NCBI GenBank assembly: GCA_002788395.1
Contig: PFRF01000056.1
Span: 1 to 45,925, forward strand
Direction: 5' to 3'
Source of the DNA: Candidatus Levybacteria bacterium CG_4_9_14_0_2_um_filter_35_21
GTDB taxonomy: Bacteria > Patescibacteriota > Microgenomatia > Levybacterales > UBA12049
Length of the DNA stretch: 45,925 bases
The position numbers and the translations under genes were made by a program. Within the stretch, counting starts at the first letter, position 1, and every line of letters starts with the position of its first letter. The notes beneath the pieces were generated by a model. The model did no database searches. It worked only from the letters and a program-made list of their open reading frames with translations, and was not told where the DNA came from. Positions 3,721 to 43,677 of this stretch are shown here, in pieces.

Positions 3721-3746
3721 AGTTCAATGATTTGAACCATTGAACT
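3721..3746. repeat. 26-bp palindrome, family A (orphan copy)
   Basis: AGTTCAATGATTTGAACCATTGAACT; 25/26 identical to 31574-31599. Confidence 0.9.
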
Positions 3747-5693: not shown

Positions 5694-5733
5694 AAAAGAA
5701 AAACCTTTCCCAGACGGGAAAGGTTTTTCTTTT
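5694..5733. terminator. Bidirectional intrinsic terminator
   Basis: AAAAGAAAAACCTTTCCC-AGAC-GGGAAAGGTTTTTCTTTT between convergent genes. Confidence 0.9.
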
Positions 5734-5779: not shown

Positions 5780-5809
5780 ATAGTTCAATGATTCAAATCA
5801 TTGAACTAT
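5780..5809. repeat. Palindrome, family A (orphan copy between convergent genes)
   Basis: ATAGTTCAATGATT-CA-AATCATTGAACTAT. Confidence 0.9.
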
Positions 5810-29799: not shown

Positions 29800-30531
29800 T
29801 TACCACCCTTTTGCTATTTCCTCTATTAAACCTCCAAAATATCTAACGGTAGGTACTACATTCGTATAATCAAGCCTGGTTGGACCAACAACTCCGATTT
29901 CTCCCGAGAGTCTCATTGGGGTCTGATATCTTGTAAAGACAAATCCATATGGACCTTGAAGTCTCGGACCCAATTCTTCACCGATCAAGACATGAATTTC
30001 TTCATCGTCTAAAACGTGAGAAAAAATATCTTTTATATATTCAAACTCATCGATTACGGAAAAAAGACTTTTAGTAACATCTATATCAAAAAATTCCGGA
30101 ACATCAAATATATTAGCATATCCTGCACAAAAAACATTACCGTCATCTGTTGTGGTAATTGCTAAAGATTTTGTTTTATCAGCCAAATTTTTTGTAAGCT
30201 GCTTCAAAAATATCTGTTCCTTATCTCTTACGTCCCAAACATTCTCCTTCAGCCCAACTTCTTCTGCTACGGACAATTCTTTTTCTTTCATAAGCTGTTT
30301 TACATAAAATTTCATTGCCTGTGAAGTTGGAACCCGTCCTGCAGAAGTATGCTGTTGTTTAAGATAACCAAGTTCTGCTAGCTTAACCATCTCGTTTCGG
30401 ATTGTTGCAGGAGATGCGGAAAGATTGTGCTTTTTTTCCAAGGTTTCCGAGCCAACAGCTTCCGCAGTATTAATGTATTCCTCAATAAGATTTCTTAAAA
30501 TTTCTACTTGTCTTTGTGTTAAATCGTGCAT
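29800..30531 (-). CDS. hrcA: Heat-inducible repressor HrcA (short form)
   Basis: IEEYINTAEAVGS, SPATIRNEM, HTSAGRVPT, IGVVGPTRLDY. Confidence 0.95.
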   Translation of the reverse strand: MHDLTQRQVEILRNLIEEYINTAEAVGSETLEKKHNLSASPATIRNEMVKLAELGYLKQQHTSAGRVPTSQAMKFYVKQLMKEKELSVAEEVGLKENVWDVRDKEQIFLKQLTKNLADKTKSLAITTTDDGNVFCAGYANIFDVPEFFDIDVTKSLFSVIDEFEYIKDIFSHVLDDEEIHVLIGEELGPRLQGPYGFVFTRYQTPMRLSGEIGVVGPTRLDYTNVVPTVRYFGGLIEEIAKGW

Positions 30532-30570
30532 ATTCTTGTAAAGATGAATAATACACCCCGCGGTGCGTCA

Positions 30571-30597
30571 TTAGCAGTATAATAACACGACTGCCAA
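30571..30597 (-). promoter_or_regulatory. CIRCE-like operator overlapping the hrcA promoter
   Basis: TTAGCAGTA-N9-GACTGCCAA; TTGACA (30607-30602), 17 nt spacer, TATTAT. Confidence 0.8.
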
Positions 30598-30721
30598 TTC
30601 TTGTCAAGAAGTAAATTTTGATCTACGATGAGAATTTTACATACACGCCTCTGGCGAAAGAGAATTCAATAAAAATAATTATCAGGAAGTAAACTTTCAA
30701 TAATCATGTTAGACTAATTTT

Positions 30722-31054
30722 ATGCGGAAAAAAAGAAAAATTATACCTTTTCTAATTAGTCTTATCTTTTTGGGGATAACTACTTATATTATTGTTAATT
30801 ACCCTCCTACGTTATCATTTTCCATTTTAAATTACAAATTTTCAATTTTTTACATTCTTTTTGTTTCTCTTTTTTTATTTGTAACTTGTTTTGTTGCCTA
30901 TTTTCTTAAAAATTTAAGGCGGGGTTTTTTTACAGCTCTTTTCGTGGCTGGATTTTTATTATTGAATTTTTACAAACTTGGACAACCGATTTTCATAATT
31001 CTTCTTATCACAATCTTCGTAGTTTTAGAGCTTCTCTTTACCAAAAGTAAATAA
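30722..31054 (+). CDS. Small multi-TM membrane protein
   Basis: Hydrophobic 110 aa; TGTTAGACT-N6-ATG. Confidence 0.75.
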   Translation: MRKKRKIIPFLISLIFLGITTYIIVNYPPTLSFSILNYKFSIFYILFVSLFLFVTCFVAYFLKNLRRGFFTALFVAGFLLLNFYKLGQPIFIILLITIFVVLELLFTKSK

Positions 31055-31087
31055 TTAATTAATAAAAATAAATTATTGACAAATATC

Positions 31088-31113
31088 GATTCAATGATTC
31101 AAACTATTAAACT
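31088..31113. promoter_or_regulatory. Degenerate family A palindrome in the promoter of TrpR-like gene 1
   Basis: GATTCAATGATTCAAACTATTAAACT, 21/26 to 5782-5807; TTGACA at 31076-31081; ends 3 nt before ATG. Confidence 0.75.
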
Positions 31114-31116
31114 ATA

Positions 31117-31575
31117 ATGGCAAAAATTTCAAAGCGGATTATCAACAAACACTTAGAGGGTCACATCTTTGAAGTTTTTATAAAAACACTGGCACAAACC
31201 AGTAACCCTGACGAGGTAAAAAATCTTATAGAGGATCTTCTTTCTCCTACTGAAAAAGTGATGCTTGTTAAAAGACTTGCAATCGCGGTTCTATTATCAA
31301 AGGGCTATACTTATAGCCAAATTGATAGCTCCCTAAAAGTTTCTCGTCCCACAATTATGACTGTTTCTTACTGGCTCAAAAATGGAAGAAGTGGTTATAG
31401 AAAAGCTGTAGAAAAAATTTTAAATAACCAGAAAAAGCAGACATTAATTGACGACATTGAGGAAATTGTATTACAGATAACTCCGCCAAAAATACACGAC
31501 AGCATTGCGTTTAAAAAGAAACAAAAACAAGGGAAAGAACTTTTTAAAAAAAAATTTAAAAAGAATTCTCTTTAG
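31117..31575 (+). CDS. TrpR-like (YerC/YecD family) HTH protein 1
   Basis: DLLSPTEKVMLVKRLAIAVLLSKGYTYSQI...VSRPTIMTV. Confidence 0.88.
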   Translation: MAKISKRIINKHLEGHIFEVFIKTLAQTSNPDEVKNLIEDLLSPTEKVMLVKRLAIAVLLSKGYTYSQIDSSLKVSRPTIMTVSYWLKNGRSGYRKAVEKILNNQKKQTLIDDIEEIVLQITPPKIHDSIAFKKKQKQGKELFKKKFKKNSL

Positions 31576-31601
31576 TTCAATGATTTGAATCATTGAACTA
31601 A
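31572..31601. repeat. Palindrome, family A, overlapping the stop codon
   Basis: TTAGTTCAATGATT-TG-AATCATTGAACTAA. Confidence 0.9.
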
Positions 31602-31694
31602 TAGTGAAGTTATTATAAATAATAGTAGAAAAAAGTTGTTGTTAAGATATCCGGCTTCGTTGTTTCATCCCTCCCTTTCTGTTAAAATTAGGCT

Positions 31695-33107
31695 ATGAAA
31701 AAATTTTATATAACAACTGCTATTGATTACGTTAACGACACTATTCACATAGGGCATGCTTTCCAAAAAATTGCAGCTGACAGCTTAGCTCGTTATTATC
31801 GGTTAAAAATTGGAGATGAAAACGTTTTTTTTCTAACCGGAACCGATGAATATGGGCAAAAAACCGAAAAGGCAGCCAAAAGCGCAGGCATTACTCCAAC
31901 TGAATTGGTAAAAAAGATTTCGGATTCAGATCAGAGGCAACAAGATAGTTTAAATATTTCTTACAACCGTTTTATTAGAACAACCGATCCTGATCATATG
32001 AAAGTTGCCCAAAAAATTTGGAAAAAAGTAGATACGTCAGGGGATATTTATCTGGGAGAATATAGCGGGCTTTATTGCGGGGGGTGCGAAGCATATTATA
32101 CCGAAGATGATTTAATAAACGGTCAGTGCCCATTTCATCCGAATCTAAAAATACAAAAAGTTACCGAAGAAAATTACTTTTTCCGCTGGAGTAAATATAA
32201 AGATTTTTTAATTAACTATATTAAAGATAATCCTAATTTTATTTTTCCCAAACACCGTGCCAACGAAATGCTGGAGTTTGCCAAAAACATTAAAGACATT
32301 CCAATCTCCCGCAAGCATTTTAAATGGGGTATTCCTGTTCCGGAGCACCCTGAGCAAGTTATTTATGTTTGGTTTGACGCTTTAATAAACTATATTTCGG
32401 GTATTGGATACTTGGAAAATAAAAAATTATTTGAAAAATTCTGGCCGGCAGATATCCACATTTTAGGCAAGGATAACTTGCGTTGGCACTCTCTTTTATG
32501 GACAGCAATGTTAAAATCCTCCGGAATTGATCTTCCAAAAACAATTATTATTAACGGATTTTTAAATATTAACGGGCAAAAAATTAGCAAATCTTTAGGT
32601 AATGTTATTAAACCAACCGATTGGATAGAAAAATACGGCGCCGATGCAGTCCGTTATTATCTTTTAAGATACACTGTTTTAACCGAAGATGGTGATATTT
32701 CCGAAAAAAAATTAATCCAAGCTTACAACTCCGACTTGGCAAATGGCTTGGGAAATTTATGCTCAAGAGTTGCAAAGCTTGCGGAAAAAGTAGGATTGGA
32801 GATGGAAAATGGGGAGAAAAAATTAGATCCTAAAGTAGAAAAAGCAATCGAAGATTTTCAACTTCATGAAGCTTTAAAAATCATTTGGAGAAAAATAAGT
32901 GAAATAGATAAAAAATTAAATCAGGAAGAACCTTGGAAAATTTTAGACGAAAAAATACTTAAAGAAAAATTAATTAACTACTCAAAGGGAATTGTAGAAG
33001 CAGTTGTTAATCTAAAACCATTTCTCCCTGAAACTGCTAAAAAAATACTAAATCAATATGATGGAAAAATTACTTCCCAACCTCCTTTATTTCCAAGAAT
33101 TAAATAA
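31695..33107 (+). CDS. metG: Methionine--tRNA ligase (short monomeric form)
   Basis: YITTAIDY..HIGH, GTDEYGQK, YVWFDAL, KISKSLGN. Confidence 0.97.
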   Translation: MKKFYITTAIDYVNDTIHIGHAFQKIAADSLARYYRLKIGDENVFFLTGTDEYGQKTEKAAKSAGITPTELVKKISDSDQRQQDSLNISYNRFIRTTDPDHMKVAQKIWKKVDTSGDIYLGEYSGLYCGGCEAYYTEDDLINGQCPFHPNLKIQKVTEENYFFRWSKYKDFLINYIKDNPNFIFPKHRANEMLEFAKNIKDIPISRKHFKWGIPVPEHPEQVIYVWFDALINYISGIGYLENKKLFEKFWPADIHILGKDNLRWHSLLWTAMLKSSGIDLPKTIIINGFLNINGQKISKSLGNVIKPTDWIEKYGADAVRYYLLRYTVLTEDGDISEKKLIQAYNSDLANGLGNLCSRVAKLAEKVGLEMENGEKKLDPKVEKAIEDFQLHEALKIIWRKISEIDKKLNQEEPWKILDEKILKEKLINYSKGIVEAVVNLKPFLPETAKKILNQYDGKITSQPPLFPRIK

Positions 33108-33111
33108 GTTT

Positions 33112-33906
33112 ATGATAGATGCACATTGTCATTTAAATTTTCAGACCTTTGTAAGTGATGTTGAGGAAGTTATAGGAAGAGCAAAAGATAAAGATATAAA
33201 TATTATTAATGTTGGTACCGCTCTCGACTCTAGTAAAACCGCAATTGAGCTTGCCGAAAAATATCCTGGGCTTTATGCAACAGTCGGAATTCATCCTCAT
33301 CATGCAGATAAATTAGAACTCAACTGGGAAGTTGAATTTGAAAAATTGGCAAAACATCCAAAAGTTGTTGCAATCGGAGAAACAGGAATTGACTATTTCC
33401 GTTACGAGTCAAATGGCATTACCAACAAAAATTTACAAAGAAAACTTTTTGCAAAACAAATAAAAATTGCACATAGATTAGATCTTCCTTTAATGATTCA
33501 TAACCGTCAGGCTGGAGAAGATATTTTGAAAGTTTTAAATGAAAATAAACCTCTCTTAAAAAATCTTCCCGGACTTTTTCACTGTTTTTCCGGAGACGTT
33601 GAGTTTTTAAAAAAAGTCTTAAACCTTGGTTTTTATGTTGGTTTTGATGGAAATATAACCTATCCCGGAATTGCCAAAGGAGAAACAACTGCTCTTTTTG
33701 ATCTAATAAAATATGCTCCGATAGATAAAATAATTTCCGAAACAGATTCGCCATATCTAACTCCAATTCCCCACCGTGGAGAAAGAAACGAGCCTTCTTT
33801 TGTAAAGTTTGTTGTGGAATTTATTGCCGAAGTTAAAAATCTTACGAAAAAAGAAGTAGCAGAAAAAACAAGCAAAAATGCTACAAATCTGTTTAGGCTT
33901 TCTTAA
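33112..33906 (+). CDS. tatD: TatD-family nuclease
   Basis: MIDAHCHL, GIHPH, AIGETGID, HCFSG, ETDSPYL; start moved to ATG 33112. Confidence 0.93.
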   Translation: MIDAHCHLNFQTFVSDVEEVIGRAKDKDINIINVGTALDSSKTAIELAEKYPGLYATVGIHPHHADKLELNWEVEFEKLAKHPKVVAIGETGIDYFRYESNGITNKNLQRKLFAKQIKIAHRLDLPLMIHNRQAGEDILKVLNENKPLLKNLPGLFHCFSGDVEFLKKVLNLGFYVGFDGNITYPGIAKGETTALFDLIKYAPIDKIISETDSPYLTPIPHRGERNEPSFVKFVVEFIAEVKNLTKKEVAEKTSKNATNLFRLS

Positions 33907-35121
33907 AAACACTAAGATACCATTTAATATAATTAGGAAGCCATTTAAGTAATTTAAAATTTGACTTACCCTCTTCACGATCTCTCCAGACTGTTGGAAT
34001 TTCAGTAATTTTATATCCTAATTTATGTGCCTTCAACAATATCTCGAGTGAATACTCAAAACCGCTGGTACTTTCAATTTTTATATTTTTAAAAATTTCT
34101 TTTTTATACATCTTATAAGCGTTCGTTGGATCAAGAGTAGAAATTTTAAATATATAATGAAGTGTAAATCCTGCCGTTTTTGACAAAAAAGTTTTTAAAC
34201 GAGGTCCTCCAATTTTTCTTCCCTTTGGCATGTAACGAGAAGCACATATTACATCAAATCCTTCTTGTGATAATTTATACATTTGGTCAATTTGCGTAAT
34301 ATCATCCGATAAGTCTGCCATTAAAACCACAATTACTTCTCCTTTTGATTTTTTAAAACCTGTTCTAATGGCATTCATTACTCCTCTACCATTTCTTGAA
34401 TTATTTTTAATTAGGAAAATGTTTTTTAATTTATTGTTTTTAATGTAATTTGTAGCAATTATTACGGTTGGATCATTATCTAAATCGTATATTATGAGGA
34501 TTTCGCAAGACGTTTTTACTTCCTTCCCAACCTTTGCGCGCTCTTCTCCTATTCCAACACAATTGAATTGACGAACAATCGTATAGGGTAACTTATATTG
34601 TTCCCAAGCACCCTTAGCAAAATATTCACAGGCAAATTTTTGGAATCCATATGTCGACAAGGGTGGAGGTATTTTGGAGACCTCATCTTCTTTTGTCGGG
34701 AATTTATCCGTCAATTCATAAACCATACTCGAAGAAATTACGGTTATTTTTTTCAATTTTTTATTTAAAAATGCATCAATTGCGACGTCAAAAGTAGAAG
34801 CAATAATACGCTCGTTTTCTGCAATAAGATCATAAGCAAATTCATGAAAATAACTAATTCCACCGATTTTTGCCGCACCCGCAATTAGATGATCGCAATC
34901 TTTTAAGAGCTCTTTTAATAATTTTGTATTTTTTATGTCTCCCTTTACAAGGGAATAACGAGGATTTTTATCATAGCTCTTTTCGATTAACCCATATTTG
35001 GAAAAATTATCTATACCAATAACCGTATTTCCCCTCTTAAGTAATTCTTCTACAACATATCCGCCTATAAAGCCTGCAGATCCCGTAACGAGTATTTTTT
35101 GCCTGATTTTCCTTTATTCAT
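33893..35121 (-). pseudogene. Frameshifted NAD-dependent epimerase fused by deletion to a DPM1-like GT2 C-terminal part
   Basis: The frame from 35095 reads ILVTGSAGFIGG...SSSMVYE...YGFQK, but ATG 35121 is out of frame across an A6 run. After GKEVK it switches to GT2 motifs (ADLSDD, ASRY..GG, EIPTVWRDR..GKS). Confidence 0.75.
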
Positions 35122-35258
35122 AGCCCCTTACTAAATATTGATTTTAAGATTGGTATAGTCTAAGATCTTTATGTCAATAAATCAAGCTATAAAGGTAGTC
35201 TTTTAGACATAAGCTTATTGAAAAATCATCAGAAAACGCTCATACTTTATTTTATACA

Positions 35259-36752
35259 ATGACCAGTTTTTTTCAAAAAATTTTTTCTCGTTATCCCGTA
35301 AAAACAACCAGAGTTTTAGAAATAATTCCGGGATTTTTGTCGTGGACACTTATCCTTTTCCCTGTCTGGGGATCACTTCTTATTCCCTACACTGTTGCCT
35401 ATTTTATTCTTTTTTATGACGTTTATTGGTTTTACAAGTCCTTTTCCCTAGTAATTAACTCTTATATTGCTACTAATAAAATAAAAGAGGCAGAACAAAT
35501 AAATTGGCTTAAAAAAGCAGTTGAATTTGAAAACTTTAATAAAATTTCACACGTAGTTGTAATTCCGAATTATAGAGAAACCTTAAATAAACTTAGAGAA
35601 ACTCTAGCTGCAATTTCCGAGCAGACTTTCCCAACAGAAAAAATTTTTATAGTATTGGGAATGGAAGAACGAGAGAAAAATATTAAGGAAAAAGCAAATA
35701 TTTTAATAAATGAGTTTAAAGATAAATTCGGCGATGTTATCGCAACTTATCATCCGGATATCGAGGGCGAAGTTAAAGGCAAATCTTCCAATGAGGCATA
35801 CGCGGGAAAATACGCTTACAAAAAATTAGTTGAGGAAAAGGTTATAGAAATTGATTATGCAACGATTTCTTCCGTTGATGCAGATTCAATTTTTGATAAA
35901 CAATATTTTGCCTACTTAGCTTATTTATTCTTAAAAGACGACAAACCTTACAATAAATTTTGGCAATCTGCCGGAGTTTTTTATAATAACTTTTGGAAAG
36001 TTCCCGCTCCTGTAAGAGTAATTTCTTTTTTTGGTAGTCTTTGGAGAATAGCTGTTTTGGTTCAGAAGGACCGTTTAGTTGCGCATTCCACATATTCACT
36101 CTCTTTTAGAATGCTTCATGAAATCGGCTATTGGGACGTGGACGTAATACCTGAAGATTATAGAGTATTCTATAAAGCATTTTATATGCGTAAAGGGGAA
36201 CTTTGGGTGGAGCCAATTTTTTTAAAGACTTCTATGGATTCTCCGCTTGCCTCGACTTACCTGAAAACTTTAAAGACAAAATATGAACAAGAAGAACGCT
36301 GGTCTTGGGGAGTATCGGATAATCCCGTTTTTATAAAATGGTGGCTGACCGTACCTGATGTCCCTTTTGTCAGAAAAACAATGATGCTTTACCATGTCCT
36401 ACTGGATCACTTACTTTGGCCCGTTAACTGGTTTATTATTACTATTGCTGCAAACGTAATGCCCTTTATAAATCCTATTTTTTCCAGAACTGCTCTTGGA
36501 TACAATCTTCCCAAACTTGCCGGATTTATTCTAACTTTCTGTTTATTTGCTCTTCTTGCTATGATTGTAATAGATTTTAAAAATAGACCAAAAAAATATT
36601 CTGCTTCTATGACAAGACAATTTTTATTTCCGCTTGAATTTATGCTTTTACCCATTGCCGGATTTTTTCTCTCCACACTACCTGCAATAATTTCCCATAC
36701 TAAACTTATGCTTGGAAAAAGGTTAGAATATAAGGTAACAGAAAAAATATGA
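35259..36752 (+). CDS. Membrane GT2-family (processive-type) glycosyltransferase
   Basis: VVIPNYRE, GKSSN, DADS, IPED, QEERWSWG (QxxRW), flanking TMs. Confidence 0.88.
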   Translation: MTSFFQKIFSRYPVKTTRVLEIIPGFLSWTLILFPVWGSLLIPYTVAYFILFYDVYWFYKSFSLVINSYIATNKIKEAEQINWLKKAVEFENFNKISHVVVIPNYRETLNKLRETLAAISEQTFPTEKIFIVLGMEEREKNIKEKANILINEFKDKFGDVIATYHPDIEGEVKGKSSNEAYAGKYAYKKLVEEKVIEIDYATISSVDADSIFDKQYFAYLAYLFLKDDKPYNKFWQSAGVFYNNFWKVPAPVRVISFFGSLWRIAVLVQKDRLVAHSTYSLSFRMLHEIGYWDVDVIPEDYRVFYKAFYMRKGELWVEPIFLKTSMDSPLASTYLKTLKTKYEQEERWSWGVSDNPVFIKWWLTVPDVPFVRKTMMLYHVLLDHLLWPVNWFIITIAANVMPFINPIFSRTALGYNLPKLAGFILTFCLFALLAMIVIDFKNRPKKYSASMTRQFLFPLEFMLLPIAGFFLSTLPAIISHTKLMLGKRLEYKVTEKI

Positions 36753-38221
36753 GAGTATTAAAAAAACTTGAAAAAAAATTTGGGACATGGTTTTTAATTT
36801 TTGTTTCGTTTATCTTTTTTGTATTTCGTCTCCCATCTCTTTTTGAACCATATTGGTATGGAGACGAAGGCATTTATCAAACACTTGGCATTGGCATAAA
36901 TCACGGCAGACTTTTATATAGAGATATTTTCGACAATAAACCTCCTCTTCTTTATCTTCTTTACAGCTTTTTTAGTTCCGATCAGTTCATGGTTAGATTG
37001 GCAAACCTTTTTTTTGGAATTCTGGCGGTAATTATTTTCTTTATTTTAGTAAATAAACTCTTTAAAAGTAAACTATCCGTATATTCATCTACCGGATTCT
37101 TTGCTTTTTTACTTGCCATTCCTTTACTTGAGGGGAATATCGCAAATGCCGAAAATTTTATGCTTTTCCCTTTAATTCTGGCCGGGTATTTAATTTTTTC
37201 TGCCTGTCAAAAATTAAATTATAAAGTTTTTTTTGTTTCAGGACTTTTAGTTGGAATTGCATTTCTTTTTAAAATCGTTGCTATTTTTGATTTTGCAGCA
37301 TTTTTTGTTTTTTTACTTTTTTCGGATATTAATTTTAGATTTTCCAAATTAATAAACAAAAAATATCTTATTTGTCTTTTAGACAAAGCTTTCCTTTTTA
37401 TTCTTGCCTTTTTAGTTCCCATTTCTCTGACTATTTTATTTTTTTATATTTCAGGTGGATTTTCCTACTTTTTAAAAGCAACTCTTTTTTCTAATGTTGG
37501 ATATGTTGGATATGGCAATCGTTTTATAATTCCACAGGGACTTTTGATCCTAAAGCTTTTAATACTCGCTTTTTTTTCTTTTTTTGTTTTTGCAAAAAGA
37601 AAAAGTTTAGAACTGGAGGGGGTATTTATTTTTCTTTGGCTTGGATTTTCTTTATTTAATGCTTTCTTCTCTCAACGACCTTATACACATTATCTTTTAG
37701 TTTTACTACCAAGTTTTTCTCTTTTGATCGGATTTATTTTTACTAATAAAAAATGGCGGAATTCTTCTACTGTTCTTCTTTTGCTAATTGCCTACCTTGT
37801 ATTTAATAATTTTTATCTTTTTAATAAAGTCGTACCTTACTATGAAAACTTTCTAAATTTTGCTGATGGAAAAAAGAGCTTAAGCGCATATCAGGGATTC
37901 TTTGATAGAAGAACCCCAATAGATTATCAGATTGCAGATTATCTTAGACCAAGATTAAAAGAAAATGACAATGTTTTTATTTGGGGTAATAACGCTCAAG
38001 TTTATAAATTATTAGAAAAATTACCACCCGGAAGATATGCTGCTGCATATCATATCTCTAACTATAAAGATGGCATGGATGATACAGCCGGAGGGCTTGC
38101 GAAAAATAAGCCTAAATTTATTATTTTAATGCCAAATGTAAAAGCATATCCTTTTTTACTTTCGGACTTTAAGCAGAGTATTATACTTTACGACGTCTCT
38201 ATCTATGAAAAGATTTTTTAA
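36749..38221 (+). CDS. GT-C (ArnT/PMT-like) glycosyltransferase
   Basis: WYGDEGIY...LYRDIFDNKPPLLY, many TMs. Confidence 0.85.
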   Translation: MRVLKKLEKKFGTWFLIFVSFIFFVFRLPSLFEPYWYGDEGIYQTLGIGINHGRLLYRDIFDNKPPLLYLLYSFFSSDQFMVRLANLFFGILAVIIFFILVNKLFKSKLSVYSSTGFFAFLLAIPLLEGNIANAENFMLFPLILAGYLIFSACQKLNYKVFFVSGLLVGIAFLFKIVAIFDFAAFFVFLLFSDINFRFSKLINKKYLICLLDKAFLFILAFLVPISLTILFFYISGGFSYFLKATLFSNVGYVGYGNRFIIPQGLLILKLLILAFFSFFVFAKRKSLELEGVFIFLWLGFSLFNAFFSQRPYTHYLLVLLPSFSLLIGFIFTNKKWRNSSTVLLLLIAYLVFNNFYLFNKVVPYYENFLNFADGKKSLSAYQGFFDRRTPIDYQIADYLRPRLKENDNVFIWGNNAQVYKLLEKLPPGRYAAAYHISNYKDGMDDTAGGLAKNKPKFIILMPNVKAYPFLLSDFKQSIILYDVSIYEKIF

Positions 38222-38558
38222 AGACATAGTGTCTGATAATATAACACAAAAGGGTTTTTCTGCTTGCTTTATAATTATTTTATTATCGTTTATATATGCT
38301 GTTTTTTATTTTTACAGCTTGCCACCACTTCTTCCCCTTTTTAATCAACTGCCTTGGGGAGAGCAAAGACTTGTGAATACAACAGGAATTTTTATTCCTC
38401 CAATTATAGCTTTTTTAATTTTAACAATAAATTTAATTTTTTCCTCTTTGGTTTATAAAAAAGCCCCCTTGCTTTCCAGAATACTGGCGGTTACAAGTCT
38501 TTTAATATCCGTGCTTACTTTTCTTTTTGTAATTAGAACTGTTCAGGCTGTTTTATAA
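38205..38558 (+). CDS. Small membrane protein (DUF1648-like)
   Basis: LPPLLPLFNQLPWGE loop between TMs. Confidence 0.7.
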   Translation: MKRFFKDIVSDNITQKGFSACFIIILLSFIYAVFYFYSLPPLLPLFNQLPWGEQRLVNTTGIFIPPIIAFLILTINLIFSSLVYKKAPLLSRILAVTSLLISVLTFLFVIRTVQAVL

Positions 38559-38559
38559 A

Positions 38560-39627
38560 ATGTTTAATTTCTCCACAACTATAATTTTGCCATTTTTTAT
38601 TGCCTTTATATTGACCGTAATTGCTACTCCAATTTCTTTAATTTTTATTAAAAAAGCAGGTCTTATCGATGATCCAAAAAAACGTCATCATCCCGCTACA
38701 CTTCATACTAGACCAATTCCAAGAAGTGGTGGAATTCCTTTTTTTCTAGGTATTGCAATAACGGGGATTATTTTTTTACCTGTAGAAAAAATAACCGTTG
38801 CTTTATTTATCGCCGGACTTATTTCTCTAACTATCGGTGTTTTAGATGATAAGTATGATATTTCACCGTACTTTAGATTTTTAATAAATATTATTTCTGC
38901 TTCTATTGTTGTTTACGCCGGCGCAAATATTCCTTTTATTACAAATCCTTTCGGAGGAATTCTTTATTTAAATGCATTAAAATTGTCTTTTCTTCCGGTC
39001 GGAGTTCCTTTCTTCTTTTCTTATGCGATTGCCATACTTTGGATCGTCTGGATTATGAATATGCTAAATTGGAGCAAAGGCGTAGACGGACAAATGCCCG
39101 GAATCATTGCAATTTCTGCCATTGTAATCGGCATTTTAAGTTTACGTTTCCCCGTAATTGATCATTATAGCTTAATAAGTGCAAAGCTGTCTTTTATGAT
39201 CGCAGGTGCAGCAATTGGTTTCTTACTTTTTAATTTTTATCCCGCTAAGATTTTTCCCGGATATGGAGCAACCTCTATATATCTTTTATTAAGCGTTGTT
39301 TCTATTTTAGCAAGTACAAAACTTGCAACGGCAATTTTGGTAATGGGTGTTCCAATCGTAGATGGAATTTTTACCATAACCAGAAGAGTTCTTTCCGGAA
39401 AATCTCCCTTCTGGCACGATAAAAAACACTTGCATCATCTCTTATTGAAAAGGGGTTATGGACACAGAAAAATAGCATTGTTTTATTGGTTAATTTCTGC
39501 TATATTAGGGTCGCTTGCCCTAGTTCTATCTAGTAAGGGCAAATTGTTTGCTATTGTTATGGTTGCAATAGTTGTAAGTGGAATAATATTGTTCCTACAA
39601 TTAACAATAGAGGATCCAGATGATTAG
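38560..39627 (+). CDS. WecA/TagO/MraY-family polyprenyl-phosphate sugar-1-phosphate transferase
   Basis: HTRPIPRSGG, GVLDDKY, NWSKGVDG, FNFYPAKIF, DKKHLHH. Confidence 0.92.
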   Translation: MFNFSTTIILPFFIAFILTVIATPISLIFIKKAGLIDDPKKRHHPATLHTRPIPRSGGIPFFLGIAITGIIFLPVEKITVALFIAGLISLTIGVLDDKYDISPYFRFLINIISASIVVYAGANIPFITNPFGGILYLNALKLSFLPVGVPFFFSYAIAILWIVWIMNMLNWSKGVDGQMPGIIAISAIVIGILSLRFPVIDHYSLISAKLSFMIAGAAIGFLLFNFYPAKIFPGYGATSIYLLLSVVSILASTKLATAILVMGVPIVDGIFTITRRVLSGKSPFWHDKKHLHHLLLKRGYGHRKIALFYWLISAILGSLALVLSSKGKLFAIVMVAIVVSGIILFLQLTIEDPDD

Positions 39628-40564
39628 ATTTGCTTTCGAGGTCTTTAGACTACTTCGTCCCAGGCAATGGATAAAGAATTTCGCACTCTTTGCTGCAATT
39701 CTTTTTGCGGGAGAATTGTTTGATCAGCTAATTTTTGAAAAAGTTTTTGTAGCATTTTTTGTTTTTTGCGGCTTATCTTCGGCAACCTACATAGTTAATG
39801 ATCTATTTGATATTAAAAAAGACAGGATGCATCCGTTTAAACGATTTAGACCGTTGGCGGGCAATAAAATTTCCGTTAGTGCTGCCATTCTAACTGCTGC
39901 TATTTTAATTTTTATTTCACTCTTTGTCAGCACAACTATAACTCCGGCATTTTTTATAATTTGTCTGGTCTATTTGTCCATCCAATTTCTTTATTCGCTT
40001 TTCCTTAAGTCACTTGCTGTTGTTGATATTCTAGCAATTGCAACAGGATATATACTTAGAGTATACGCAGGAGAATTTGCCAGCGGATTTCATATCTCGG
40101 TTTGGCTTTTATTAACAACAATCTCTATTTCTTTATTTCTTGCAATTGGAAAAAGGCGCTCGGAGCTTACCCTTTTGTCTGCAAACAAAAAGAACCTTAT
40201 TCAAGAAACCAGAGAGTCACTGTCTCGTTATTCCGAACGATTACTGGATGTTTATGCATCAATCTTTGCAACTTCAACTTTTATTACCTATTCTCTTTTT
40301 ACGTTTTTGGAAAACCCAAGAGGGATTAAGATTAGCCTTGGAGTTTTGATGCCAGAATTTCTACCAACTTTTTTTCAAAGAAAATGGCTCATGATAACTA
40401 TATTACCCGTTGTTTACGGGCTTATGAGATACCTTCAGGACATTTATGAAAAAAACGAAGGAGAAAGCCCTGAAAGAGTACTTCTATCTGATAGACCACT
40501 CCTTATAACAGTTGTTTTATGGGTAATAATGGTTATTCTTATAATTTATTTTATCGGTCCTTAA
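39620..40564 (+). CDS. UbiA-family prenyltransferase, decaprenyl-phosphate phosphoribosyltransferase-like
   Basis: LRPRQWIKN, YIVNDLFDIKKDRMHP.K..RPLA, GKRRSEL. Confidence 0.88.
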   Translation: MIRFAFEVFRLLRPRQWIKNFALFAAILFAGELFDQLIFEKVFVAFFVFCGLSSATYIVNDLFDIKKDRMHPFKRFRPLAGNKISVSAAILTAAILIFISLFVSTTITPAFFIICLVYLSIQFLYSLFLKSLAVVDILAIATGYILRVYAGEFASGFHISVWLLLTTISISLFLAIGKRRSELTLLSANKKNLIQETRESLSRYSERLLDVYASIFATSTFITYSLFTFLENPRGIKISLGVLMPEFLPTFFQRKWLMITILPVVYGLMRYLQDIYEKNEGESPERVLLSDRPLLITVVLWVIMVILIIYFIGP

Positions 40565-40568
40565 TCAA

Positions 40569-40955
40569 CTAATCTTCGAGAAAAATAATTATTAATTTTA
40601 TATCTCTATTGTTGGTTTTACTCCAATAGCGTTGGATACCATATTTAGGAATATTTTCTTTATAATGAGTAAATGAATGATAGCTTTTTATCCCATCCTC
40701 TATTGTTTCTCCGCCTGAACGCACATTCTCAACCCCTTCTGTTTCTAACATAGTTAGAACATCCGGATAGTGATGAATATAGAGCACATTTGTGATTGTT
40801 TTTTCTCCAGTATCTTCATTTACAAAATGAATAGTATCTCCTGCTTTCATTTTGTGATATAGAGTAGTATGTCGAAAAACCCGACCTTCTACTTTTTTCT
40901 TGCCATTTTTAATGGCCTTCCACGACCTCTCGGGAAGATGTAATAGATAATGCAT
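40569..40955 (-). CDS. ASCH/PUA-domain protein, probably frameshifted near the C-terminus
   Basis: AIKNGKKKVEGR...KAGDTIHF; after KYGI another frame gives NAIGVKPTIEI*. Confidence 0.8.
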   Translation of the reverse strand: MHYLLHLPERSWKAIKNGKKKVEGRVFRHTTLYHKMKAGDTIHFVNEDTGEKTITNVLYIHHYPDVLTMLETEGVENVRSGGETIEDGIKSYHSFTHYKENIPKYGIQRYWSKTNNRDIKLIIIFLED

Positions 40956-40994
40956 GTAGATATTGTATCAAGAGGTCCGAATCCTCTACTGGGT

Positions 40995-42033
40995 TGTATG
41001 CGTCACGCACTTTTCGGACTTTTGGATTGTATAAAGTTCATAGGCGACATGTATTTAAGTGATGCATGTGGCCTCTGGTAGTTGTACCAGTATAGATACT
41101 TTGTAAGCTCTTTTGCAAATGCTTTGTGATCATAGTAAATTTCATCATTTCTTAAGATAAATTCTTCCTGTATGGTTCTATTAAATCTCTCTATGAAAGC
41201 ATTGATCTTTGGCATTCTGGGATAGATAAATTGGTGCTTAATTCCTTGTTCTTCCAGATACATGTGGAATGACTTGAGAAACTCCGACCCATTGTCTGTC
41301 TGTACTGTATGAATGGAGGTTGATGTTAATTGCTGAAATTGCTTGAATACTTCTCTTGCTGTTGCTGATGAGAGGTTTTGTACATAAACAAATACTTCTC
41401 GTAATTAATATATACGACAATTGAATCCATTTGGATAAACCCGGGAGTTGTTACTCTTGGTGATTTACGTGTTCTTAGCTTTTTGAACTTGTTTGCCTGT
41501 TTTTTTGCATATACTTTCTTCTCAAATGTCAGATGTCTTCTCTTAATAACCTTCCCGATCGTACTTGTCGCAAGGGTTTTAATATCAAGTTCTTTTGCAT
41601 ATGCATCAACGAATGGTTTGAGCATGCTTTTACCAATGTTTCCATGCTCTTTTCTCATCTCCTTAATGAAGGCGATAATTCTCCAGTCTGTTTCCATCCT
41701 TCTTACATGAAGAGGTCTGGTTTGGTGAGGTACTAAACTAATGATTCGTCTCCCGGATCTCTCATAAAGGATCTTCCAATCATAGAAGGTGCTTCTTTTT
41801 ACCTTGAATGCATCAAGAGTTCCCCGCAAACCATATTTGTAGTAGTGGTTGATTACATGAATACGAAATCCTGCTACGTCTGATATCTCTAGAGCTAATC
41901 CATCCTGCATCATTTTCATCAGGATATGATAACCCTTTTTAGAGTATTTCGGTCGAAAGTATCTTACCCGCTTAAAATCACTCGGCATACATTTCTTTTC
42001 CTTAATCGTCCGAAATGTATCGTGACTTATTCA
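40995..42033 (-). mobile_element. IS481-like insertion sequence, decayed
   Basis: Inverted repeats TGTATGCGTCACG-CACTTTTCGGAC and TGAATAAGTCACGATACATTTCGGAC; exact 5-bp target duplication TGGGT (40990-40994, 42034-42038). Confidence 0.88.
41003..41988 (-). pseudogene. IS481-family transposase pseudogene
   Basis: HTH (VKRSTFYDW), FIQMDSI, frame break near 41385, then VQTDNGSEF...NAFIERFNRT...YNYQRPHASL. Confidence 0.88.
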
Positions 42034-42187
42034 TGGGTCGCGAGGACTATCCTTTTTTCACGTATTGGGAGCTGATCTAATTACTCGCTAATCGACTTTA
42101 TTTTACAGATTATTAAGTTTACCGTCTGGTAAAAATATTCCGGAAAAAACATTTAGATAGAACAACATTCAGTAATCCATTAACCAC

Positions 42188-42221
42188 TAACACTCTAATG
42201 ATACGTATCATTAGAGTGTTA
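42188..42221. repeat. Perfect 34-bp palindrome, family B
   Basis: TAACACTCTAATGATAC-GTATCATTAGAGTGTTA. Confidence 0.92.
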
Positions 42222-42266
42222 AAAATAATTTTTAATTGAACTAATAACTATAAACAAACTTAAAAA

Positions 42267-42710
42267 TTAGAAAGGTTTTTTGTTTTTTCTTTTTTTATAC
42301 TCGTGCTCTTTCCGCCAATACGACCAATCGTGTCCTTTTAAAGGAGGAACATCTGTTAATTTCGTTTCTATCTTTTGCCAGAATTCATTCATTTTTTCAT
42401 CACGCAGAATCTTTTCAACGATTTTTCTGTAGCCTTTGTCCGAGTATTTTAAATTTAAACTAACATTGGAAATTGTACTTGGGGTAACTCTGAGCATTTG
42501 TCTTATTGATGGATATGAATAACCCTTTGCTAAAAGTACAGCAATGGAAATTCTTTTTGCCAACATTATTTTTTCTACCGGAGAAAGAAACTCTTCAAGA
42601 AAATTCTCAATATCCTCGGAATCTCTTAAAGCAGAAATAGTATTTTTAAACACTTCAAATATTCTTTTTTCTACATCTTTATGGACCGGATAACGAGAGA
42701 CTTGAGCCAT
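42267..42710 (-). CDS. TrpR-like (YerC/YecD family) HTH protein 2
   Basis: EFLSPVEKIMLAKRISIAVLLAKGYSYPSI...VTPSTISNV; paralogue of 31117-31575. Confidence 0.88.
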   Translation of the reverse strand: MAQVSRYPVHKDVEKRIFEVFKNTISALRDSEDIENFLEEFLSPVEKIMLAKRISIAVLLAKGYSYPSIRQMLRVTPSTISNVSLNLKYSDKGYRKIVEKILRDEKMNEFWQKIETKLTDVPPLKGHDWSYWRKEHEYKKRKNKKPF

Positions 42711-42712
42711 AT

Positions 42713-42745
42713 CACTATGATGATAAGTATCATTAGAGTTGTCAA
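42713..42745 (-). promoter_or_regulatory. Degenerate family B palindrome in the promoter of TrpR-like gene 2
   Basis: CACTATGATGATAAGTATCATTAGAGTT, 24/28 to 42191-42218; abuts TTGACA (42745-42740). Confidence 0.8.
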
Positions 42746-42831
42746 GATAAATAAATTAATTTTGCATTTATGATTTCTAAAACCTTTGAGGCATTGTTTA
42801 TAACTCCAGTTTTTAGGGGTCTGTCCGAGGA

Positions 42832-43677
42832 CTATTCTTTTTTTGCGTATTGAGAACTAATCCAACCTATTTTGCCATCTAACAGCTTAATCTGAAACCA
42901 ATTTTCTTCTTCCGAAACAAGTTCATAACTTTCCCCAGGATTTACGAGCGCTACTTGAGCCGATGATATTGAATTGCTCTCTCTAACTCTTAAAAATCCT
43001 GTTGGAGTAGTCAAAATGGTAATTTTTTTTACAGATGGTGTTGGAGTTAGTGTAATACTTGGGGAAGTTGGTATAGCAGCAGCACTGGCACCAACATCCT
43101 GATTTATGCTTAGAAAAATTATACCTTCAAGTTTGTATCCAACAATTGTTCTAATTCTAATTGCTTTTTCTTTATATCCGTCTTTAGAAAGCTTAACTTC
43201 GTGATCGGATTCCGTAATATTTTTTAATAAAAGTGGACTTGTTCCGGAAAGATTGTTGTCTAAGGAAACTTTAGCTTTATCCGGAAAAGAAACAATTAAT
43301 ACTTGAGCATCTTTCTTATCGTCAATCGGAATAAGATTAATTATACTTCCATGCGAAAGACCTCCTTGTCCAAAAGATCTATCGACAACGGTTAATGTTC
43401 CGGAAGAAATAGTAATCTTACTTTCAAAATAAGAAAAATCTCCCTGAAACGGAACCAACTTAATTGTGTATTCTCCGGTTGTAATCATGTTATTTTGATC
43501 ACACTTACAAAGCGGCGTTTCTCCAATTAATTTTCCATTCAGATAGACTTTGCTTTTTGGCACAGAGGTAACTTGTAGACCGCCTTTATTTGAAGTTTTG
43601 TTTAAAATAATTGTAACCGTTATAAAAATTAATATCGCTATAAGAGGGGGAACAACAATAAAAAGAATTTTTTTCAT
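42832..43677 (-). CDS. Membrane-anchored PEGA-domain protein with C-terminal SH3b domain
   Basis: LQVTSVPKSKVYLNG...G.TP twice; FLRVRE...WFQIKL.DGKIGWISSQY. Confidence 0.85.
   Translation of the reverse strand: MKKILFIVVPPLIAILIFITVTIILNKTSNKGGLQVTSVPKSKVYLNGKLIGETPLCKCDQNNMITTGEYTIKLVPFQGDFSYFESKITISSGTLTVVDRSFGQGGLSHGSIINLIPIDDKKDAQVLIVSFPDKAKVSLDNNLSGTSPLLLKNITESDHEVKLSKDGYKEKAIRIRTIVGYKLEGIIFLSINQDVGASAAAIPTSPSITLTPTPSVKKITILTTPTGFLRVRESNSISSAQVALVNPGESYELVSEEENWFQIKLLDGKIGWISSQYAKKE

Follow-up and report, generated by a model that had tools for sequence, protein, structure and literature searches.

Why should a gene for a small repressor-like protein carry what looks like the same operator at both of its ends? 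The question arises in a 45,925-nucleotide (nt) contig (PFRF01000056.1) of Candidatus Levybacteria bacterium CG_4_9_14_0_2_um_filter_35_21 (assembly GCA_002788395.1). This whole stretch, contig C41 of the genome that we denote G000 (0.9 Mb, 35% G+C, 60 contigs), is called the window hereafter. Two of its genes, gene 1 and gene 2, encode proteins of the Trp repressor (TrpR) fold, A and B, and each lies between two copies of a palindrome, one in its promoter and the other at or shortly after its stop codon. To our knowledge, bacteria of the candidate phyla radiation (CPR, or Patescibacteria) have very few regulators, and almost none of these has a known site. The present study suggests that genes 1 and 2 are probably self-bracketed autorepressor units from a distinct long-form branch of the TrpR fold, with a second operator at the 3′ end. 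The layout is apparently new to print: in a search of the literature (main texts), neither long-form TrpR-like proteins nor their palindromes turned up in any paper, and no bracket of this kind was described for CPR genomes.

Every coordinate and sequence that an earlier note on this DNA had given for the two genes, their palindromes and the 3-nt spacing between palindrome and ATG was confirmed (Table 1). Proteins A and B are 41% identical across 147 residues and differ in the recognition helix, the second helix of the helix-turn-helix (HTH), which reads SRPTIMTV in A and TPSTISNV in B. The family A palindrome follows the pattern AGTTCAATGATT-NN-AATCATTGAACT with a 26-bp core. At the 3′ end of gene 1 this core begins at the second base of the TAG stop, and in the A-orthologues the TAG likewise falls within the palindrome; the upstream copy ends 3 nt before the gene 1 ATG. 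By chance alone such sites are not expected, since 100 shuffles gave no match to either the A or the B pattern. Family B has no sites in the genome other than the two bracketing gene 2. Family A is not confined to gene 1 and has six sites genome-wide, including the two solo copies in the window.

Table 1. Features of the window that enter the argument; positions count from the first letter of the window.
Feature	Position	Strand	Basis or remark
Gene 1, long-form TrpR-fold protein A, 152 amino acids (aa)	31117-31575	+	Open reading frame (ORF); PF01371, 51.8 bits
Gene 2, long-form TrpR-fold protein B, 147 aa	42267-42710	-	ORF; PF01371, 49.0 bits
Family A palindrome on gene 1 stop	31572-31601 (26-bp core 31574-31599)		AGTTCAATGATT-TG-AATCATTGAACT, 0 mismatches to pattern
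Degenerate family A palindrome, gene 1 promoter	31088-31113		GATTCAATGATT-CA-AACTATTAAACT, 3 mismatches in 22-bp core
Probable -35 of gene 1, TTGACA	31076-31081	+	Sequence reading; similar distance before ATG in A-orthologues
Perfect 34-bp family B palindrome	42188-42221		45 nt past gene 2 stop
Degenerate family B palindrome, gene 2 promoter	42714-42739		2 mismatches; ends 3 nt before ATG
Gene 2 promoter, TTGACA (42745-42740), 17 nt, CATCAT (42722-42717)	42714-42745	-	Promoter scan, 10/12 match
Putative leaderless promoter of metG itself, TTGTTT, 17 nt, TAAAAT, 6 nt, ATG	31660-31694 (ATG to 31697)	+	Sequence reading
Segment with gene 2 and broken IS481 transposase (41326-41988, 41003-41263)	40565-42831		2.27 kb
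Solo family A site	3721-3746		1 mismatch; long spacer beside IS481 transposase fragment
Solo family A site	5782-5807		0 mismatches; between convergent genes, after canonical terminator

The bracket is not confined to these two genes. The genome holds four paralogues that match PF01371, two of them outside the window, and in all four a palindrome of the gene's own ends 1 to 3 nt before the ATG while a similar copy stands at or after the stop. In paralogue C (contig C59), TGTATAATGCAC-TA-GTGTATTATACA, preceded by TTGACA, ends 1 nt before the ATG, and the 3′ copy, a perfect 38-mer, repeats its core at a distance of 88 nt from where the stop codon begins. In paralogue D (contig C32), TATGCTACTA-TG-TAGTAACATA ends 3 nt before the ATG and CTACTACGTAGTAG directly follows the stop codon; this family has a further, perfect 28-mer 4.5 kb away.

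For the relatives, a PF01371 profile search was run in 40 related genomes, which with G000 gave matches in 30 of 41 (0 to 7 per genome). From these loci 67 ORFs were taken, and a scan of species-representative genomes with the closer alignment (A2) added 32 loci, some of them duplicates, from Levybacteria, Curtissbacteria, Gottesmanbacteria and other Patescibacteria. Identical proteins, loci with too little flank and loci with N runs in the flank were removed before counting. We took proteins of at least 120 aa as the long form, which typically has about 135 to 170 aa, and counted a gene as bracketed when its own region from -70 to +3 shared an exact word of at least 12 nt with its own region from 12 nt before to 123 nt after the stop. 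By this measure 48 of the 65 unique long-form genes are bracketed, compared with 36 of 3764 cross-pairs of unrelated genes (<45% identity) that served as control and with none of 17 short-form genes (HisR-like beside hisG, or TrpR-like). The proposal of a self-contained unit of site, gene and site is therefore borne out beyond the two genes on which it was made. The earlier note had named family members lacking flanking palindromes as a finding that would speak against its idea; none of the short forms counted here shows the bracket, whereas most long forms do.

The palindromes themselves are diverse across the subfamilies (for example, TGTTATCATGTTCTAGAACATGATAACA, CCGTGGACTAGTCCACGG and ACTTCGATAAATCGATTTATCGAAGT). 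TrpR operators have a central CTAG or ACTAGT, and so do the operators of many long-form relatives other than A and B. The family is sizeable, with 286 clusters at 50% identity for E up to 1e-10 and 1515 for E up to 1e-3; the best 150 of these clusters are mostly of 140 to 153 aa, and the homologues named come from Curtissbacteria, Levybacteria and the 'Patescibacteria group'. The arrangement of a weak site upstream and a strong site downstream, which had been proposed as a part of the layout, describes genes 1 and 2 and is not general. In 36 genes whose two copies were paired automatically, the better palindrome was the downstream one 12 times and the upstream one 5 times, with 19 ties.

The placement of the 3′ copy indicates to which gene it belongs. 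In the 63 genes with 500-nt flanks, the promoter word recurs within 135 nt after the stop in 45 and in the following 435 nt in one; inside the ORF and in the 435 nt further upstream it recurs in none of the 63. Where the downstream spacer is at least 100 nt (32 genes), 28 copies sit in its first third, four in the middle third and none in the last. Of 67 genes, 25 face a convergent neighbour downstream. The 3′ copy is present in 22 of the 24 genes with a convergent neighbour and in 24 of the 41 with a co-directional one, a contrast that is only suggestive, as kin are not independent and the ORF calls are crude. Taken together, the placement after the stop, the position in the first third and the convergent cases argue that the 3′ copy is part of the repressor gene rather than of a promoter further downstream. 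The TAG inside the palindromes of the A-orthologues likewise ties the copy to the end of the repressor gene. From one operator to the other the distance is 439 to 573 bp. The neighbours are so diverse (63 Pfam families among the 67 downstream and 70 among the 64 upstream) that we see no conserved partner gene. An enrichment of translation genes among them was considered and rejected, as about 12 of 67 is no more than expected of a small CPR genome.

The upstream copy, in turn, fills the space between TTGACA and an apparently leaderless ATG. Throughout the family the operator centre lies 11 to 37 nt (median 17) before the ATG, and TTGACA is common at about 30 nt before it. In gene 2 the CATCAT hexamer ends 6 nt before the ATG and the B palindrome occupies both the spacer and the -10; a dyad over the spacer, the -10 or the start is what we took to mark an operator, and gene 2 has it. 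The two asymmetric bases of this upstream B copy change CATTAG to CATCAT, while the single asymmetric base of the upstream copy of paralogue C changes TAGTGC to TAGTGT. In our reading of these sequences, both departures from symmetry put a T at the end of the -10 hexamer and make for a better -10. Leaderless starts seem to be usual in this genome, judging from a Shine-Dalgarno-like motif in only 87 of 690 ORFs and from TTGACA, which is found 50 times within 50 nt of a start and in 29 of these cases at -38 to -35 from the ATG. The short-form HisR-like and TrpR-like genes of relatives (L002, L003, L004, L006, L031, L033; L008-L012, L032, L035) also have leaderless starts. These follow directly after repeated dyads (ACTTTA-N6-TAAAGT twice; TACTAGT repeats), and leader-like regions with canonical terminators come next.

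Operator similarity tracks protein similarity, with r of 0.64 for the rest of the protein and 0.51 for the recognition helix, in agreement with the proposal of co-diverging pairs of protein and operator. When the rest of the protein is held constant, the partial r between operator and recognition helix is 0.21, a value reached by 1 of 2000 permutations. In the A group we sought a residue-to-base code by setting T, N or R at position 82 beside the inner bases, and no consistent rule emerged.

The proteins form a branch of their own. With E-values of 9e-14 and 6.6e-13, A and B stand well above the gathering threshold of PF01371 (27 bits; scores in Table 1). However, they reach only 31.1 and 33.9 bits with the NCBIfam model of YerC/YecD (TIGR02531, cut-off 42.2) and 23.5 and 19.6 bits with that of TrpR (TIGR01321, cut-off 67.25). 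Therefore, the membership in YerC/YecD that had been assumed for them is not upheld, and these scores argue for a separate long-form branch. An AlphaFold2 model of protein A (predicted local distance difference test, pLDDT, 84.5) has the six TrpR helices (11-27, 31-41, 44-61, 66-73, 77-89 and 93-103) and two extra C-terminal helices (105-121 and 130-151), the last of which is strongly basic. Foldseek returned TrpR-family structures only, over about 95 residues (3kor, 3frw, 3g1c and E. coli TrpR, 1tro; target template modelling score 0.73-0.81), and a sequence search of the PDB gave 3kor, 3g1c and 3frw. A four-copy ESMFold2 model scored 0.68, the best control 0.02; TrpR dimers have already been solved, so the score is possibly one of memory. 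The mark applied to it, which this model reached, was also reached by 20 of 30 proteins known from structures as same-chain pairs and by 1 of 23 known as single chains in a two-copy calibration, the present job being four-copy. The runs share at least 79% of contacts, with partner pLDDT of at least 66. The confident interface in this model is the TrpR-type dimer (residues 13-55 and 86-104), and the other contacts run via the DNA-reading helices.

A mechanism can be proposed from these features. A presumably dimeric protein of the Trp repressor fold would recognise its own 24-34-bp palindrome. Since the upstream copy fills the space from TTGACA to the leaderless ATG, binding there would cover both the -10 and the start site, and the gene would thereby be shut off by its own product; both binding and repression are what we infer from this anatomy. 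The 3′ copy, within a few bases of the stop, would serve the same protein as a second operator and would delimit the unit on its 3′ side. The promoter with its operator, the ORF and the 3′ operator would then be inherited and relocated together.

Several observations weigh against this account. Seventeen of the 65 long-form genes have no matching 3′ word at the 12-nt level. The A-orthologue at L097:1456-2000 (56% identity, tblastn) has an A-type palindrome on its stop and a different one, with a TAGTCTAGACTA core, in its promoter; such mixed sites hint at cross-control between paralogues. For gene 1 the promoter scan found no acceptable -10, the sole candidate at 18-nt spacing being CAAACT (31100-31105). 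In the comparison of operators and proteins the rest of the protein gives a partial r of 0.48, above that for the helix. Hence the correlation of helix with site that had been proposed as a check does yield a signal, though a modest one, and most of the covariation reflects shared ancestry. The four-copy model has no confident contact via the C-terminal helices and so lends no support to the tetramer that looping would need, though it does not speak against one either. Finally, 8 of the 22 solo sites examined in four genomes, beyond the self-flanking pairs, lie in coding regions of relatives (argS, cysS twice, fmt, folD, two membrane proteins and a glycosyltransferase), and G000, G011 and G021 have their solo A-type sites at non-orthologous places. 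Another relative, G008, carries eight B-type palindromes with 0-3 mismatches and no close B-orthologue (best match 35% identical; assembly 85% complete). A simple autorepressor model does not explain this case or the other solo copies.

The remaining 14 solo sites are intergenic (3 convergent, 9 tandem, 1 divergent and 1 at a contig start). A conserved regulon was considered for the solo sites and was rejected, as the A-type ones are not at orthologous places. Near-perfect intragenic copies were seen at L070, L071, L072, L074 and L075 (G008), L078 and L079 (G014) and L122 (G011). These palindromes are read in the one open frame, for example as LMIRIIR, and the cysS copy lies at the same codons in two genera. 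In the spacer between a short HisR-like gene and hisG, 5-11 nt past the hisR stop, G008 has a B-type palindrome (L004:1775-1806) and G014 that of a different long-form paralogue (L002:1772-1795).

Could the bracket instead be the outline of a mobile or once-mobile cassette, in which the palindromes are ends as in insertion sequences (IS), the HTH protein is an end-binding factor mobilised in trans, and the solo palindromes are footprints or minimal derivatives? The units are accessory. In two same-genus genomes, distant ones with MetRS 47% identical, a 110-aa gene is followed by metG after 22 nt and cassette A is absent, and the 2.27-kb segment with gene 2 and IS481 debris is missing there from between the genes that flank it here. 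At least four different neighbourhoods contain A-orthologues, each time with both sites, and the copy number of 0 to 7 per genome, the dispersed near-perfect palindromes (five in G014 with 0-1 mismatches, besides the eight in G008) and a weak N-terminal similarity to an IS630 transposase (E 0.004) fit the same idea. However, the proteins (PF01371, weak HTH matches) contain no transposase, recombinase or HUH domain, and none recurs as a conserved neighbour. Relatives were absent from viral contigs in searches with alignment A2 and paralogue C (few peptide patterns) and from plasmids, and among phages there was one weak match (30% identity). In another genus, one genome carries an A-orthologue at the same place between the 110-aa gene and metG. 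Of five intragenic copies compared with their G000 orthologues, one coincides with a 14-aa insertion, as a mobile element would have it, but three involve no change in length and one (glycosyltransferase) a single-residue gap; among the four that could be aligned across the site, three replace sequence at unchanged length. Moreover, the palindromes do not form the limits of the insert at metG, which has 33 nt and 95 nt extra beyond them compared with the 22 nt of the empty site. Contigs of four DNA runs over 30500-43500 gave no cassette-less form, a negative that says little, as the joints listed are short-sided and probably from other organisms and the contigs break at the palindromes. Empty sites of the kind that the earlier note proposed to look for do exist in the distant same-genus genomes, and the units have changed neighbourhood as a whole; the non-autonomous mobile unit of the earlier note appears unlikely.

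The remaining alternatives concern the 3′ palindrome or the protein as such. As RNA the palindromes would form stable hairpins (-17.2, -21.8 and -25.2 kcal/mol; z-scores -3.5 to -8.1) directly after the stop codon, as would suit an element that terminates or stabilises the mRNA and resembles the promoter site only secondarily. This is improbable, since no T-run follows the hairpins and the terminator scan found no terminator there, while the same genomes use canonical GC-rich hairpins with T-runs (window 5694-5733; his/trp leaders). It would also leave unexplained why the sequence equals an untranscribed promoter site and co-varies with the protein. That the strong 3′ site serves the next gene as its operator, making regulator and target a pair, would agree with amino-acid sensing by TrpR-family proteins, with gene 1 preceding metG in two genera and with several translation genes among the downstream neighbours (RRF 4, YqeY 4, MetRS 2 and AlaRS 2 of 67). 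But 60 nt separate the end of the A site from the -35 of metG, so that the site lies outside the core promoter of metG. The convergent neighbours, next to which the site is still kept, the first-third position in long spacers and the 63 different families downstream all make such pairing very unlikely. We give as little credit to chromosome-structuring or fork-barrier factors with few high-affinity sites. Tus/TerB and RTP do offer the precedent of a gene beside one of its own sites, and the long near-perfect palindromes are few per genome and partly in essential genes of relatives (argS, cysS, fmt, folD). Yet up to seven PF01371 matches per genome (four in G000, with site families of their own) are ill-suited to one chromosome-wide role, and the only conserved sites are the two flanking the gene itself.

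Some further observations concern palindromes and their surroundings in this genome, which has 36 palindromes of score at least 11 against none in a shuffle. IS481 debris lies at 41003-41988, 204 nt from the B 3′ site, and at 2457-2990, about 730 nt from a solo A site; a link between IS and palindrome was considered and rejected, as the two fragments are unrelated in DNA. At 42192-42217, contigs of a public run end and begin exactly at the B palindrome (two records, one run). Such palindromes therefore break assemblies, which may explain copies near contig ends. Among 24 runs listed, none of RNA contained this DNA. The C-type palindrome (C1:3439-3466, C57:3814-3843 and C59:1305-1342) sits inside a repeat of about 150 bp on three small contigs, which may be plasmid- or phage-like DNA; the C1 and C57 copies adjoin HicA/HicB-like gene pairs. 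Other strong palindromes are not tied to TrpR-like genes, namely TAGCTTCGCAAGG..CCTTGCGAAGCTA hairpins and a 32-36-bp AGAGGTTGAACCTCTGCAGAGGTTCAACCTCT pair with one copy inside an ORF (C26:778, C26:1717, C37:1918, C37:10021, C47:12057; C34:185, C50:14773).

If genes 1 and 2 are self-bracketed autorepressor units, as we think probable, what would the 3′ copy do? It could be a protein roadblock or insulator that sets the transcript end and shields the gene from convergent transcription. We lean, tentatively, towards this boundary role because of the strict placement after the stop, the absence of copies from ORFs and the frequency at convergent genes. It is possible that the copy is instead an anchor for a DNA loop by which the promoter site would be occupied more often, and mechanically a loop over 439-573 bp is just as possible; some quite different function has a similar chance. 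Rho is present in G000 (529.5 bits) and Mfd gave no match at the cut-off, its best match being a RecG-like gene; these results do not settle the roadblock. More speculatively, and with some doubt on our side, the proteins might not be ordinary metabolic regulators at all but private protein-dependent boundary elements of leaderless CPR genomes. Each paralogue would then close its own promoter and stop transcription both ways after its own stop and at a few fast-changing places, some in essential genes. Since the only conserved targets are the two ends of its own gene, the unit may owe part of its persistence to being a semi-selfish cassette that silences itself and relocates.

To carry a second operator at the stop codon would be unusual in the architecture of a gene. 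Besides, the family offers dozens of ready-made pairs of protein and operator with distinct specificity, from which a recognition code for the TrpR fold and orthogonal parts might be drawn.

Comparison with known systems sets the long form apart from each of them. E. coli TrpR has the same fold, what in the models may be the same intertwined-dimer interface, and a palindromic operator over its own promoter. The long form is about 50 residues longer with two extra helices, its operators measure 24-34 bp, a second copy stands at the stop codon and no trp genes are attached. The statement that no site had been described for YerC/YecD proteins is outdated: according to the available text of PMC9413887, YerC of Bacillus subtilis is HisR, a TrpR-family histidine repressor with lineage-specific 20-bp palindromic operators. 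The likeness lies in the family and its palindromic operators, and short HisR-like genes adjoin hisG in relatives of our genome. In contrast to HisR, which the same text describes as having fewer than 100 aa and controlling his genes, A and B have 152 and 147 aa and lie beside metG and IS debris. There are no his genes near genes 1 and 2, and the long form has no conserved partner gene.

Genes flanked by their own repeats are familiar from IS elements and from the repetitive extragenic palindromes (REPs) with their associated tyrosine transposases (RAYTs), which are HUH Y1 transposases. As in these systems, the promoter lies in the left repeat, the stop codon lies at the right one, and solo copies are dispersed in paralogue-specific families. 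Here, however, the protein is a TrpR-fold HTH protein with no DDE or HUH domain, and each repeat is itself a palindrome overlapping the promoter layout. In lac O1-O2, gal OE-OI and lambda OL-OR, an auxiliary operator loops to the promoter, so that two sites of the same specificity lie hundreds of bp apart with one on the promoter, as in our units; here the second site lies just past the stop and never inside the ORF, and no tetramer interface is predicted. The repressor of cluster A mycobacteriophages has extra copies of its site, the stoperators, at which elongation stops, as far as the available text of PMC9283540 describes them. These further repressor sites beyond the promoter operator are a precedent both for a roadblock and for solo copies within transcription units. 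The phage sites are asymmetric, number in the tens and serve a phage genome, whereas those found here are palindromic and belong to cellular genomes, with 2 to 8 in each, and conservation is confined to the ones beside the repressor gene. If the 3′ copy is a true roadblock, cells would have their own counterpart of the phage stoperators, one by which compact, leaderless genomes could keep neighbouring genes insulated from each other.

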